Positions 1-5,050 of a stretch of 64,000 bases of DNA are shown piece by piece. The notes under the pieces were generated by a model. That model saw nothing but the letters and a program-made list of their open reading frames with translations, made no database searches and was not told the DNA's origin. Source of the DNA: Leptospiraceae bacterium (GTDB lineage Bacteria; Spirochaetota; Leptospiria; Leptospirales; Leptonemataceae); NCBI GenBank assembly GCA_040217195.1, contig JAVJNR010000001.1, positions 1-64,000 of the forward strand, in the 5' to 3' direction. Position 1 is the first letter of the stretch; every line of letters begins with the position of its first letter. The translations under genes were made by a program, and so were the position numbers.

Positions 1-144
1 CTGTGACGAAGGCCGTCGGCGCCCGGAGCGTGCCCTCTAAGACCTGATATTCTGCACGCTCCGGGGAGAAGCCGACGGCCGGAGAGCGCGGAAACCCGAG
101 GAGCGAGCGAAAGCGAGCCCGCAGCGCTTAAAGTGCAGTTATGC
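1..144 (-). repeat. attC-like recombination site A (partial, truncated by window edge)
   Basis: Shares GAGAGCGCGGAAACCCGAGGA (82-102) and CGCAGCGCTTAAAGTGCAGTTA (120-141) with sites B and C; internal stems 11-20/71-80 and 23-33/54-64; core GTTATGC at 138-144. Confidence 0.85.
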
Positions 145-158
145 GCCGTTGCCAATTC

Positions 159-788
159 TTAAACGGTGGAGAGGATTAATTTGACTATGCCTTCGATCCG
201 GAAATCGTCAGCCACGGTAAAGGCTGGGTACTTTTCTGAATTGATTGATTGTAGAATCGGTGCTGATTCACTTTTAATCGATGGGACATACTTTTTGATC
301 AGTACTTGGCCTTGATTGACACATACAACGAGGTCTCCTGCATCCGCGGTTTGGGAAATCCGAGCTATGAGCAAGTCACCAGGATTGATACGAGGCATCA
401 TTGAATCTCCTTTGGCTCTAAGTGCAAAGGCCTCCTCGGGTGGAAATGGAATCATTTTGGAATATAGGGGGATGCGTTCGACCGGGTCTCCATCTAATAC
501 CGAACCGTTTGGACCACATTGTCCGCTTCCGTACCTGTTAATGTATACGATGGTACGTGCGGCCTTTTCTTCCGAAAGGATCTTATAGTCCCGGGTATTT
601 CCGGGGTTCCGCCAGAGGTGTCCTTTTTCCTCCAGTTGGAGAATATGGTGGCGTACTAAGTTGGGAGAGGTGAGATTCAGCTCCTCCATCAGCTCACGGT
701 AAGACAATGGCTCGTCTATATTCTGTTTCAGTAAATCGAGCAACTTCTGTTGCGTAGGGTGAAGTTGATTCTTCTTTGATCTTGCCAT
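159..788 (-). CDS. LexA-like repressor (N-terminal winged HTH + S24 autopeptidase), cassette-borne
   Basis: LexA-type HTH (PLSYRELMEELNLTSPNLVRHHILQLEEKG), Cys-Gly putative cleavage site (GQCG), catalytic Ser (KGDSM) and Lys (LIKK). Confidence 0.9.
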   Translation of the reverse strand: MARSKKNQLHPTQQKLLDLLKQNIDEPLSYRELMEELNLTSPNLVRHHILQLEEKGHLWRNPGNTRDYKILSEEKAARTIVYINRYGSGQCGPNGSVLDGDPVERIPLYSKMIPFPPEEAFALRAKGDSMMPRINPGDLLIARISQTADAGDLVVCVNQGQVLIKKYVPSIKSESAPILQSINSEKYPAFTVADDFRIEGIVKLILSTV

Positions 789-865
789 ATACTAAATGCA
801 TGTTGGGTAGTTCTGGCCACGAAAGAAAAAGGGCTATGAACAATTAAAAAGTCGCCGGACAATCT

Positions 866-884
866 GAACAACTATATTGTACAA
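866..884. promoter_or_regulatory. Candidate operator in the divergent lexA-like/DUF3892 intergenic region
   Basis: Imperfect inverted repeat TGAACAA-N5-TTGTACA; a further TGAACAA near 837; direct repeat TCGACCA x2 (888-905) just before the AGGAG RBS. Confidence 0.3.
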
Positions 885-915
885 GTATCGACCATATGTC
901 GACCAGGAGTGAGAA

Positions 916-1128
916 ATGCAGAAAAAAAAAGTCGAAGTTACCAAGGAAAGTGCCACTGGTTTGAATCAGAGATTTCGAGACAAGGAAACGAATAGGGAAA
1001 TGACTCGCGGTGAATTCGCGGATGCAATAGAGCGCGGAAAGTATCCGGGCTACCATGTAGAAAAGGCCAACAATAAGAGAGTCCCACGATCCAACCCCGA
1101 CAAATCTAAGGGAAATAATCTAGGATAA
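916..1128 (+). CDS. DUF3892-family small protein (70 aa)
   Basis: C-terminal RSNPD....NNL motif typical of DUF3892; AGGAG RBS upstream. Confidence 0.75.
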   Translation: MQKKKVEVTKESATGLNQRFRDKETNREMTRGEFADAIERGKYPGYHVEKANNKRVPRSNPDKSKGNNLG

Positions 1129-1138
1129 GGAAAATCAA

Positions 1139-1306
1139 ATGAAGCGAGTAAAAGGTCTAGCAGAGCTTCAGCGGGAACTTAAGCAATTAGAAAAGAAGGC
1201 CCGAGAGCTTAACGGAAAGAAATTGCATATTCAAACTGCAGGTAAATCGGAGCAGCAAATTCGGGCAGAGGTTCAGAAGTATGTTCGGAAAGAGCTAGGG
1301 TTTTAA
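1139..1306 (+). CDS. Small basic helical hypothetical protein, 55 aa (MKRVKGLAELQRELKQLEKKARELNGKK...KELGF); not in ORF track
   Basis: Manually translated; AAGGA RBS overlapping the DUF3892 stop; ends just before the cassette terminal repeat. Confidence 0.7.
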   Translation: MKRVKGLAELQRELKQLEKKARELNGKKLHIQTAGKSEQQIRAEVQKYVRKELGF

Positions 1307-1329
1307 TGGTGCCGTAGATTGGCAATGGC

Positions 1330-1562
1330 GCATAACGTACGTCTTTAAGCGAAGTTGCGCGCCTTCTGTGGCGCGCAATTTGGTTTGAGCGGCGGTTGCA
1401 GCCGCGCATTCTAAAATCCCCAAAATGCGCGGCTGCAACGAGGCCAGGCCGAAAGGGAGTTGGTCCGGGCTGGAGTTTCGGCTTCAGCGGCCGTAGTGCC
1501 GAGAGCGCGGAAACCCGAGGACCGAGCGAAGCGAGGCCGCAGCGCTTAAAGTGCAGTTATGC
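1330..1562 (-). repeat. attC-like recombination site B (233 bp)
   Basis: GCATAAC...GTTATGC cores, inner CTTTAAGCG/CGCTTAAAG inverted boxes, stems 1355-1378 and 1395-1439. Confidence 0.9.
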
Positions 1563-1573
1563 GCCGTTGCCCT

Positions 1574-2005
1574 TTATTTCTCAATCCTTAATAGTTCACA
1601 GTTAATCTTGAATATTTCCAGAGAGTCCTTATCGGTGAAGAACTGAAACCGATTCTTAGTGAGAAGCTTGAACCCCGGAGTCTTAGAGAATAGGGAAAGA
1701 AGAGTTTGCGCCGGAAGCTGCAAGAATTCAGCAGAGCATTGACTTGAACTACAGTTCCAATTTCCACGCTCTATCATTGGGGATTTGGGTGCATAGTTCG
1801 ACTGAAGGAAGAAAAGGAATCTCCCGCCTGCATAAAAGACCCACAGGATGGTAGCTTCGTCATTTCCGTAGGAAGAAATGATAAATTCGACATCTGACAG
1901 CGAGCCATCGGGTGCGGCAAATAGCTTCAAGGGAGTAAGAAAGATTACCACCGTTAGAGCTAATGCTATGGTACACTCTCTTTTGTTTAATGGGCAATGG
2001 CGCAT
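1574..2005 (-). CDS. Cassette-encoded hypothetical protein, probable signal peptide
   Basis: ORF fills the cassette between sites B and C; hydrophobic N-terminus (IALALTVVIFLTPLKLFA); stop adjacent to the terminal repeat; start codon uncertain. Confidence 0.6.
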   Translation of the reverse strand: MRHCPLNKRECTIALALTVVIFLTPLKLFAAPDGSLSDVEFIISSYGNDEATILWVFYAGGRFLFFLQSNYAPKSPMIERGNWNCSSSQCSAEFLQLPAQTLLSLFSKTPGFKLLTKNRFQFFTDKDSLEIFKINCELLRIEK

Positions 2006-2233
2006 AACGTATGTCTTTAAGCGAAGTCGCGCGCCTTTTGTGGCGCGCGATTTGGTTTCCAAGCGCGCCTGCAGCCGTGCGCTATAAATTCCCCCAAAGC
2101 ACGGCTGCAGCGAGGCCAGGCCGAGGAGGCATGTTGGGAACGGAATCTTCGGCTTTAGCGGCCGTTCGGCCGAGAGCGCGGAAACCCGAGGAGCGGCCGA
2201 AGGCCGCCCGCAGCGCTTAAAGTGCAGTTAGGC
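2002..2233 (-). repeat. attC-like recombination site C (232 bp)
   Basis: GCATAAC...GTTAGGC cores; homologous to site B with compensatory changes in stems 2027-2050 and 2069-2110. Confidence 0.9.
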
Positions 2234-2245
2234 GAAGTGTGCCCC

Positions 2246-2713
2246 TCAGTTGTTTTTCTGTTGCTGCAGATTTGCGGCTGCCTCAATACTATCGACCTTA
2301 TAGACTCGGCTGGCAGGTACCCATTCTGGGTTTCCCTGTAGCTGGTGCTGCACATCGTAGTAATCCTCAGCAAAGTTGACAATGCGGAGTCGGTAGGAGA
2401 ACCCTACCGACTGGCCCAAACCGGGGTCTTCGTCTTGAATGATGGTTAGTGTGTACTCGCAGCTTGAGTGCCATTCGATTCTGGCTCGTTTGAATTTGCT
2501 CGGAAACAGTCTGTAAGTGGTCTGAAACCGACCGTCTCGTTCAAATATGAGAAAGAGTCCCGATTCAAGAGTCACGTGAAAGGCCCCTTCATGTAAATAT
2601 GAGCAGTCCACTGGAATATCCTTTGACAAGCTGGGTTCATCATCCGCGTGCGCAAGGAGGATATTGGAAAGAAGGAGCATAGTTAAGGCTCCCGAGATCA
2701 ATACATTCTTCAT
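2246..2713 (-). CDS. Cassette-encoded secreted hypothetical protein (155 aa)
   Basis: AGGAG RBS before MKNVLISGALTMLLLSNILLAHA signal peptide; TGA stop abuts the terminal repeat. Confidence 0.75.
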   Translation of the reverse strand: MKNVLISGALTMLLLSNILLAHADDEPSLSKDIPVDCSYLHEGAFHVTLESGLFLIFERDGRFQTTYRLFPSKFKRARIEWHSSCEYTLTIIQDEDPGLGQSVGFSYRLRIVNFAEDYYDVQHQLQGNPEWVPASRVYKVDSIEAAANLQQQKNN

Positions 2714-2749
2714 TATTTCTCCTGAGATTATTGGTTTTGGGCACATTTC

Positions 2750-2982
2750 GCCTAACGTCTATTACCCGATCCATCGCAGACAGGTACAATTCTGGCCAGA
2801 GCTCGGGACAATGCCGAACTTTTGGTTCGCAGTTGCAGTTATGCTGAACATAAGTCGAACTCACCGCATCCCGGTGTTCGCTTAACCGTTTCAGGTTTGG
2901 CCGGAATAAGGACAATAGGCGAACCTTTTGTATTTTCGGGTTCGTCTTGAGAGTTCGGGATAAATCCGTCTTGCAGTTATTA
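2750..2982 (-). other. Putative attI-like primary site between the integrase stop and the first cassette
   Basis: Ends on the minus strand in AC-GTTAGGC like the attC junctions, but its body is unrelated to sites A-C; several CGAAC/GTTCG hairpins. Confidence 0.5.
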
Positions 2983-4023
2983 ACCGGCTCTTTGCATCAT
3001 TTCCAGTGGGCTTTTGATGCTTGTCAAGCGGCCTGTGGAAACGTGGGTATAGACCTGGGTGGTCCGGGCCGATGCATGCCCCAGTAGTTGTTGGATGTAC
3101 CGCAGATCGATCCCCTGTTCCAGTAGATGTGTGGCAAATGCATGCCGAAGCCCGTGTATAGAGACCTTCTTCTCGATGTTCGCTCTTTTCAGAGCAACCT
3201 GAAAGATCTTTTCCATAGATCGAATGTGCATCGGGCCGGATTCAATTCCTTCAAAAAGCCATCGCGATGGGCGATAGCGTTTCAGGTATTCCAGGGTAAG
3301 CTTCTGCGCTGAATCGGAGAAGATGCTGATTCGGTCCTTCTTTCCTTTTCCAGAGCGGACAGACAGAGTGCCTCTGTGAAAGTCCAGATCTACGGTTCTC
3401 AGATTTGCTGCTTCGCTGACTCTTAGCCCGGCCGAGTATACAATAGTGAGCAGTGTGCGATGCTTCAGGTTGATGGTCGACTCCAGCAAAATGAAGACCT
3501 CATTCAGGCTCAAGACGCTGGGAAGCTTTCTACCGCGTTTGCCGTGGCCGATCCGGAACATGGATCTCTTGCCAAGAATCTTTCCATGATAGAATCGGAT
3601 TGCAGAAATGCCCAGACCGAAGGTTGAATCCGATATCTCCCTGGATTCGCTCCAGTGGACCAGAAATCTTCGGGCATCCTGCTCATCGATTCTTCTGGCT
3701 GACTTACCTGCAAAAACAATAAGCATCCGGTTAATCCATTCGTAGGCATCTCTGGTTTGCTCACTGTATCTTCTTAACTTAAGTTCATCCCGCAGATCAC
3801 CAAGGTTCAGTATTCCTTCAAATTTGATACGAACGTAGCCCAGCCGAGTGATAGCCTTTAGCGGATCATCTTCTTGAGGTACCACCCAACAATTTAGTTT
3901 ATCATCGTACCTTGACTCTGGAATTTGAATTAGAAGATCCTTGATTTCTGAATAGTAACTGGAACGTAGCGAAAGTTCGCCGGGCCCATAGCAATCTACG
4001 CGAACCGTGATTCGGTCTGCCAT
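2980..4023 (-). CDS. Tyrosine recombinase (integron-like integrase, SAM-like N domain + catalytic domain)
   Basis: GLRVSE (R), GKGKKDR (K), HGLRH (HxxR), LLGH, TTQVY (Y); LKLRRYSEQTRDAY SAM_4-type start; adjacent cassette array. Confidence 0.92.
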   Translation of the reverse strand: MADRITVRVDCYGPGELSLRSSYYSEIKDLLIQIPESRYDDKLNCWVVPQEDDPLKAITRLGYVRIKFEGILNLGDLRDELKLRRYSEQTRDAYEWINRMLIVFAGKSARRIDEQDARRFLVHWSESREISDSTFGLGISAIRFYHGKILGKRSMFRIGHGKRGRKLPSVLSLNEVFILLESTINLKHRTLLTIVYSAGLRVSEAANLRTVDLDFHRGTLSVRSGKGKKDRISIFSDSAQKLTLEYLKRYRPSRWLFEGIESGPMHIRSMEKIFQVALKRANIEKKVSIHGLRHAFATHLLEQGIDLRYIQQLLGHASARTTQVYTHVSTGRLTSIKSPLEMMQRAG

Positions 4024-4749
4024 ACTTAGAGGATGTCTGCAAAAAGGTAATTGTCTCGCAATTCTCTGTCCGTACGGAGCTCCGCCCGGTAAGTCCCAGC
4101 AATTTGAATATATGCTTGGATTTTTGCAATTCTGTTTTTTTTAAGGATATGATGCAAGCTCTCTTACAATGGAAGTGTGCATATTTTTTCGACATGGGGT
4201 TGAAATAAAATCGGCTTGGCAGCTAAAGGGAGTCCTATCTGGAGACGACCGCCAATGGCAACCTGATTGGACGAGCAAGCGCAATGCAGAGTTCATCCGT
4301 TCGATAAAAAATTGAGGTCAGGGAACTTAGAGCGATTTACAGGGAAGCAACAGCCGTCCCGCGGGTTGTTTCGGAACCGCAGAACGGAAACTGGACCTAC
4401 CGATGCATAGACATTTTAGCACGCTTCGTGGAGATCGGTTTCGAGTCTTTCCGGGTGCCGGACTCAGGCGGCCGTTTTAGTTTCTGAGCCAGCCATGGAG
4501 TCCCGACTCAAGTGCTGCGAGAACTAAACCCATCAAGAATGATCTACTGAACCCGTGCCTTTTCCCCTCGGGCATCCATTTCGGTTCTCGGATTGGAGGC
4601 CGGGCATGCAAGCCATGTTACATAATTCCGGACTCGGGGATATTACTGGATTCTGCTTACGGTTGGTCCTGCTGGATCGTTCAGGTCAATAGCTCCCTTC
4701 CATCCTGCCGATTTCTTCGGGTTTGACCTCGGCGGAAAAATCACGTTTG

Positions 4750-5050
4750 GTTCGGTCGAATCGTTTGGAGTTGGACCAAACGTATAGCTTGCGGCAGATT
4801 CCGTCGAATCGTTTGGGATTGGAACAAACGTATAGCTTGCGGTTGATTCCGTCGAATCGTTTGGGATTGGAACAAACGTATAGCTTGCGGCTGATTCCGT
4901 CCAATCGTTCGGGGTTGGATCAGGCGTATTGCTTGCGGTTGTTTTGGCCGGGCCGTTCGAATTCCGATCCGGCGTATTGCTCGAAGTTAATTCTACTGGA
5001 ATGTTCTGGTCTGAGTCCGGCCGGTAACCTGCGATTGGTCCGGCTGGACG
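4750..5050. repeat. 48-bp tandem repeat, about 4 well-conserved plus 2-3 degenerate copies
   Basis: GTCGAATCGTTTGG recurs at 4755, 4803, 4851 and (degenerate) 4899. Confidence 0.85.

Follow-up and report, generated by a model that had tools for sequence, protein, structure and literature searches.

The window analyzed here, the first 64 kb of contig C6 (G000:C6:1-64000) in the 4.6-Mb assembly of a Leptospiraceae bacterium (G000), begins with a short run of gene cassettes next to a gene for a tyrosine recombinase. From homologue labels and relatives, the DNA belongs to Leptospirales. The recombinase gene (4023-2980) is followed, after a gap of 223 nt, by three cassettes, all on the minus strand, as proposed in the initial annotation, which had read the locus as an integron-like system built on a non-canonical recombinase. 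The features are as follows:

2980..4023, minus strand: tyrosine recombinase of 347 amino acids with HARP-like N-terminal, SAM-like and catalytic domains, without the IntI insertion, co-oriented with the array
3814..4023, minus strand: HARP-like domain (residues 1-70 of the recombinase), read from a profile of 23 relatives
2815..2923, minus strand: three arm-like TTCG motifs, approximately 167, 103 and 62 nt upstream of the attI-like core; candidate accessory integrase sites
2745..2772, minus strand: putative attI-like insertion site with a TAA-N6-TTA core; no hairpin site before the first cassette
2227..2756, minus strand: cassette 1 body with 18-nt inverted-repeat ends; A/G position 11 at 2746/2237
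2246-2746, minus strand: cassette 1 open reading frame, likely start 2713, no known family
2005..2230, minus strand: site A, 226 nt from TAAC to GTTA; the plus strand of the window is the predicted recombining (bottom) strand
2024-2053: L-arm distal hairpin of site A with a predicted G2026-T2051 wobble
1556..2008, minus strand: cassette 2 body with 21-nt inverted-repeat ends
1574-2005, minus strand: cassette 2 open reading frame of 143 amino acids, no known family
1333..1559, minus strand: site B, 227 nt from TAAC to GTTA
138..1336, minus strand: cassette 3 body with 19-nt inverted-repeat ends
159-788, minus strand: LexA-like S24 repressor of cassette 3
916-1128, plus strand: divergent open reading frame of 70 amino acids in cassette 3, weak DUF3892 match
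1..141, minus strand: site C, truncated by the contig start so that just its left part is present

All three cassettes start with GTTA and end with TAAC on the minus strand, the two ends of each cassette are inverted repeats of one another, and the gene stops (2246, 1574, and 159) lie 1 to 2 nt from the terminal repeat, in agreement with the initial annotation. In cassette 2, the listed open reading frame begins inside the site, and the ATG at 2005 is the in-cassette start, a small correction. The two full sites, A and B, are 81% identical, measure approximately 233 nt each when the heptamer boxes are included and are strongly structured (folding z-scores of −5.5 and −7.0; none of 200 shuffles reached an equally good fold), matching the repeated structured element that had been noted. 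The array was said to continue off the window edge; it does run off, but the contig itself ends there. No further copies of the site were found in the assembled G000 genome, the strict cassette-end signature did not occur in 1.24 Mb (both strands counted) of three other G000 contigs, and Rfam returned no family at the gathering score.

The attI-like core is conserved in all 5 aligned same-genus loci, and the arm-like motifs are conserved within the genus as well (alignment of G000, G001, G002, G004, and G005). A sigma-70 scan for Pc near the attI-like site yielded 3 candidates against 2.5 expected, and the promoter and terminator scan was likewise at chance level. In G004, a cassette-like unit with a short, 140-nt site (L034:5680-6425) lies between the integrase stop and the attI-like region, possibly as a secondary-site insertion.

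The recombinase and its relationship to IntI

The recombinase open reading frame is intact, matches PF00589 with 136 bits and encodes all six catalytic residues (R201, K226, H290, R293, H316, and Y325). Its scores lie below the family cut-offs for integron integrases (TIGR02249, 182.7 versus 265), XerC (172.7 versus 335), and XerD (171.3 versus 330), and the best NCBIfam match, NF040815, is also under its cut-off (202.6 versus 220 bits). The KG.K.R and H.LRH motifs lie 58 residues apart, compared to 99 to 100 in classical IntI (IntI loci with both motifs found) and mostly 61 to 66 in the Xer clade, and the IntI insertion of approximately 42 residues is absent. VchIntIA (PDB 2a3v), the best PDB sequence match, aligns with the recombinase in two blocks around a gap, and a stand-in profile of 17 IntI insertions (not the intI_Cterm profile of IntegronFinder itself), with which IntI loci score 25 to 119 bits, does not match the recombinase. 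The missing insertion and the TIGR02249 score thus bear out the claim that the integrase differs from classical IntI. In a fold search with the recombinase, XerA structures rank top.

In a quick maximum-likelihood tree of 117 proteins (10 short rows dropped), Xer proteins form one clade, whereas IntI (17 rows, support 100) and insertion-less relatives form the other (support 99). The recombinase lies outside the IntI and Xer clades, within a mostly Leptospirales branch (support 93). By these comparisons, it is a close sister of IntI without its insertion, and it probably falls in the integron-like subgroup of tyrosine recombinases, the NF040815 sequence group. The accessible text of Smyshlyaev et al. 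(PMC8138268) calls the insertion "not fully conserved" in this subgroup, yet essential for integron function, and for insertion-less members it describes no cassette arrays, sites or HARP domain. The G000 genome has two Xer genes of its own elsewhere, and a search for classical IntI found none in G000 or among 18 genomes of f2, a family-level group of Leptospira.

Residues 1-70 of the recombinase are predicted to form a separate fold. A profile of 23 such N-terminal domains matches the HARP domain of SMARCAL1 (4o66) at E 6e-7, and 33 of 75 homologues match Pfam HARP (PF07443), with E up to 0.05. The best fold match of these residues is the N-terminus of T4 UvsW (Z 6.5, root-mean-square deviation 2.2, 60 aligned), and 4o66 is matched at Z 4.2, both middling scores. 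HARP domains are described as junction-specific DNA-binding in the available part of PMC4666394. In SMARCAL1 and UvsW, the domain sits on a translocase, whereas here its counterpart, a putative DNA-binding domain, is fused to a recombinase.

Cassette arrays and their sites in relatives

A relative of the recombinase (E at most 1e-40) is encoded by 40 of 61 related genomes. In G005, which belongs to the same genus, the syntenic locus has the same upstream gene, an integrase 78% identical to that of the window and an array of 277 sites in a single orientation over 248 kb (269 with both cores; site length 225-238 nt). The 263 measurable cassettes represent 217 types, 32 of which are multi-copy, and none of the 64 copy pairs shares an upstream or downstream neighbor; the gene shuffling postulated for the window is thus apparent in the cassette order of this relative. 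Between cassettes of the same type, downstream sites show a median of 5.5 differences compared to 17 for upstream sites and are the closer ones in 23 of 32 types (one pair per type; Wilcoxon p 0.0003), with identical downstream sites in 11 of 64 copy pairs and identical upstream sites in none. Thus, the downstream site travels with the gene, and the unit of movement is a gene plus its downstream site, which is the integron unit. The longest open reading frame is co-oriented with the array in 228 of the 263 cassettes. Because the three cassettes of the window have no DNA match in any relative locus compared, cassette order cannot be compared directly between the window and G005; at the protein level, cassette 1 is 36-38% identical to three G005 cassette proteins.

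Arrays are located directly behind the enzyme in six further genomes (G014, G015, G037, G039, G042, and G048), with differing site sequences of 127-231 nt. In 12 of 30 relative loci, the enzyme is followed at 60-234 nt by a co-oriented first cassette, and the first cassette in relatives follows a TAA-N6-TTA-like core without a hairpin. Public marine runs with a near-identical integrase contain one contig in which the start of cassette 1 adjoins 15 letters that do not resemble the attI-like site, contigs from two studies that depart from the window 16 nt into the first cassette (12-letter overhang), and many contigs that join the site to other sequence; given the short overhangs (12-15 letters), these junctions are only suggestive. 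The interior of cassette 3 is without cover in four public runs, which carries no weight either way.

The pairing of cassette ends, which extends over about 17 nt, is specific to the cassette. In G005, the two ends of the same cassette pair at 12.7 of 16 positions, compared to 7.8 for the in-array neighbor, with letters that vary and co-vary, and own-end pairing exceeds that of the neighbor in 258 of 263 cassettes. At position 11, the start carries A and the complement of the end carries G in all 263 G005 cassettes and in all 106 cassettes chained in six other genomes (no chain was obtained from a seventh, G028). The pair is thus a G-T wobble in the bottom strand, whereas the top strand has an A-C mismatch. 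In the L arm, the bottom strand reads NNGT after CG, and in 201 of 235 predicted folds, drawn from 11 genomes, this G is paired to T; in the L-arm helix of G005, A/G is present at the mirror position in 265 of 268 sites. Between the wobble helix and the core stem, 36-161 extra nt (per-genome medians) lie on the opposite strand, which would make the L arm a multi-way junction. The L stem pairs gap-free over 9 bp in the predicted folds, and the L box lacks an extrahelical G. The sides of the spacer loop are unequal (13/11 nt in the window, 13/10 or 12/12 elsewhere), and unpaired bases near the core are possible. Among circular sites, the bottom strand folds better than the top strand in 253 of 263, and the circular form folds approximately 9 kcal/mol better than the in-array form. 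The anatomy of the locus, the unit of gene and downstream site, the shuffled order, the own-end pairing and the invariant A/G pairs can all be read from the sequences themselves.

The site keeps the basic attC plan, with an AAC/GTT core, an unpaired spacer and a second stem. Published attC sites, according to the accessible portion of PMC2727003, are 57-142 nt long, have ends that pair over 9-11 nt and rely chiefly on the first extrahelical base for strand selection. By contrast, the sites of this group span 125-231 nt (226-227 nt in the window), their ends pair over a longer stretch, and instead of a single extrahelical G in the L stem they have a wobble pair in each arm and an L arm that branches. 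The length difference put forward in the initial annotation therefore stands, whereas the suggested difference in architecture extends to the wobbles and the branched L arm but not to the basic plan. Sedentary chromosomal integrons, such as the Vibrio superintegron, are similar in their polar arrays of hundreds of gene-plus-site cassettes behind one attI-like site and in the AAC/GTT core, unpaired spacer, predicted bottom-strand hairpin and homogeneous sites per array. Their IntI forms the sister clade of the recombinase, with VchIntIA as its best sequence match among known structures; unlike them, the enzyme studied here lacks the IntI insertion, carries an N-terminal HARP-like domain and is co-oriented with its array.

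A site-pattern scan of f2 gave at least 15 matches in 42 of 93 genomes, compared to at most 10 for a control pattern. Related sites are present in 77 Leptospira plasmid records, among them those of strain Linhai 56609, and also on the plasmids of the two L. biflexa Patoc strains; these three strains all figure in Table S1 of IntegronFinder 2.0 (PMC9024848); in the part of that table available, 30 of 30 Leptospira rows, out of 32, read 0/0/0. In two named plasmid regions, we confirmed cassettes that bear the same A/G signature. Thus, by pattern matching, related sites are abundant in Leptospira-like genomes, where IntegronFinder 2.0 lists nothing in these rows, in line with the expectation that standard tools may miss the system. 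Since Leptospira has been reported without integrons, yet such sites are abundant, a large pool of mobile genes, some of them defence-like, would lie outside current censuses.

Several observations concern individual arrays and their cargo. Two loci on named Leptospira interrogans plasmids (L208 and L209) have the same end signature and lie near toxin-antitoxin genes and insertion sequences. In the Bacillota relative L122, four cassettes with the same signature are located upstream and in the opposite orientation, the classical integron layout. The G005 cargo includes a UG13b reverse transcriptase (L053:17321-18631; PADLOC E 8e-139), RelA/SpoT, a putative AbiC, HNH and NERD domains, several signal peptidases, rhomboids, and Lgt-like and SH3 proteins. 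PADLOC gave 4 matches among the 150 longest of 192 G005 cassette proteins, so that a defence-dominated cargo is unsupported by that library. Two array sites in G005:C4 are broken by the same insertion-sequence-like element of approximately 1.2 kb, in the same hairpin loop.

Proposed mechanism and alternatives

Because the site keeps the attC plan and the enzyme is a close sister of IntI, the system is a variant integron rather than an unrelated platform. We consider it probable (roughly 0.7) that a chromosomal gene-cassette array begins at this locus and that its cassettes are excised and inserted by the adjacent enzyme via a folded bottom strand. The recombinase would cut cassettes out as circles and re-insert them at the attI-like site. 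The bottom strand of the approximately 230-nt site would fold so that two inverted arms of about 11 nt surround AAC/GTT and the unpaired spacer, each arm carrying, at mirrored positions, a G-T wobble that would be an A-C mismatch in the top strand, with a multi-way junction breaking the L arm. We infer recombination by the adjacent enzyme and use of the bottom strand, i.e., single-strand recombination of the integron type with a different strand code, in which the wobbles and the junction may take over from the extrahelical bases of classical attC. The cut would fall within ACGTTA and, by analogy with IntI, between bottom-strand A and C, with resolution by replication assumed by the same analogy. 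The least certain step, to which we give somewhat less than even odds, is that the HARP-like domain reads the L-arm branch in place of the IntI insertion.

A number of points weigh against this reading. Recombination, circles and binding are proposed from sequence, all site folds are minimum-energy predictions, and the tree that places the recombinase is only the quick one. Use of the variable dinucleotide in the spacer to locate the cut point gave a weak result (7 of 23 versus 2 of 26). The N-terminus of the recombinase alone gives no Pfam HARP match, the fold scores of the HARP-like domain are only middling, and the L122 relative, with an open frame of 300 amino acids and no room for a HARP domain, also has such cassettes; HARP is therefore not required everywhere. 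Strict cassettes were detected in only 11 of 79 wider homologue loci, a set that includes approximately 20 Xer proteins, 3 IntI, and many short contigs and was scanned with a detector tuned to this group; a repeat-based detector found clear site-like repeats in only three of these 79 distant homologue loci (L094, L107, and L122). The 8 integrase loci of the genus g24 all lack an adjacent array, and the arrays of G045 and G056 lie more than 1.7 Mb from the enzyme, with no tyrosine recombinase at the array head, so that the unlinked g24 arrays require action in trans or another enzyme.

Among the alternatives, the one that survives best, although we regard it as unlikely, is Xer-like double-strand recombination of the same cassettes by the same enzyme, between short inverted-arm cores at the site ends, with the hairpin serving another purpose such as RNA structure or regulation. 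XerC, XerD and XerA at dif resemble the system in having a catalytic domain without the insertion held essential for single-strand recombination and in the 6-bp spacer of the attI-like core, which falls within the 6-8 bp of canonical sites; XerA also leads the fold search, and every site has an inverted-arm core at its left end. The Xer proteins, however, form a separate clade and have neither a cassette array nor a HARP domain. Against such a mechanism, the co-varying, cassette-specific end pairing exists only in the circle and keeps structure rather than sequence, the invariant A/G pair is sensible only as a wobble on one strand, the spacer of the attI-like site is unlike those of the site ends in both length and sequence, and the gene travels with its downstream rather than its upstream site.

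It is quite unlikely, in our view, that the arrays are real but moved in trans by another enzyme (a past classical IntI, XerCD, or an unknown protein), with the neighboring recombinase a passenger. The unlinked g24 arrays and the lack of arrays at the majority of distant homologues would fit such a scheme, as would the conclusion of Cury et al. (PMC4889954), in the text available, that recombinases without intI_Cterm near attC are not IntI. Conversely, the enzyme directly precedes the first cassette in lineages with integrases that are only about 40% identical and site sequences that differ, it is intact and a sister of IntI, no IntI was found in G000 or the 18 f2 genomes, and all 9 g24 genomes searched still encode a relative of the recombinase.

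That the locus is just a Treponema-type reverse integron whose IntI has diverged and whose attC sites are long is very improbable and already largely refuted. Reverse integrons of Treponema, the only spirochaete clade with integrons according to the accessible part of Wu et al. (PMC3607928), share with the locus a spirochaete host, an integrase transcribed toward the array and strain-specific cassettes; the AAC/GTT core and overall plan are also alike, and a locus with classical IntI, L190, likewise has repeats of approximately 200 nt. However, Treponema-type loci encode a true IntI scoring above the TIGR02249 cut-off, whereas the recombinase remains below it, lacks the IntI insertion and lies outside the IntI clade. 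The Treponema-type classical loci compared have sites of about 60 nt with an unpaired L-stem base, and their ends pair only to position 8 (21 cassettes). Finally, a repeat-rich hotspot in which homologous recombination shuffles non-autonomous repeats without a site-specific recombinase is barely credible: the sites are long and about 90% alike, sufficient for RecA, and duplicate cassettes often differ in the downstream site, suggesting conversion between sites, but this would leave unexplained why the array has a polar start at an attI-like half site, why the pairing of ends is specific to each cassette and why the wobble is invariant.

Returning to excision and insertion by the adjacent enzyme, a broader proposal, to which we give slightly less than even odds, is that a second kind of integron is run by an insertion-less sister group of IntI. 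The bottom strand would be chosen via twin G-T wobbles and a multi-way junction read by the HARP domain, rather than by extrahelical bases read by the IntI insertion. Arrays of superintegron size would occur across Leptospirales, plasmids of pathogenic Leptospira would carry related cassettes, the enzyme could act in trans on unlinked arrays, and the system may retain the condition that gave rise to classical IntI. Both the definition of integron integrases and the search for them rely on the insertion held essential for single-strand recombination, and an intact, insertion-less sister enzyme heading a shuffled array of 277 sites would break this rule. The origin of integron chemistry from Xer-type enzymes would become testable, and the conserved wobble and junction code would be open to precise mutational tests. 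We found no description of this system in the literature, for which coverage of subscription journals was thin.

Further observations concern other arrays and the surroundings of the recombinase gene. The large g24 arrays (L198-L202; G045 and G056) have the same wobble code and begin at an attI-like junction with no recombinase nearby; the g24 integrase relative, located away from the arrays, has a 71-residue motif spacing, and G056 has many tiny cassettes of approximately 210 nt. In L190 (G111), the repeats lie upstream of the classical IntI, and one array contains two kinds of site. Upstream of the integrase start, a block at approximately 4055-4145 is strongly conserved in four same-genus genomes and is likely a promoter or operator; five tandem 48-nt repeats occupy the intergenic region at 4696-4983. 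The Leptospira SOS box TTTG-N5-CAAA, taken from the lexA2 paper (PMC3789691), the accessible text of which does not describe cassettes, was absent upstream of the integrase in four genomes, and the window has one loose match. The LexA-like S24 repressor of cassette 3 is only 22% identical to the other LexA-like protein of the genome and, with the divergent DUF3892-like open reading frame, may constitute a mobile, possibly damage-inducible switch within the array.

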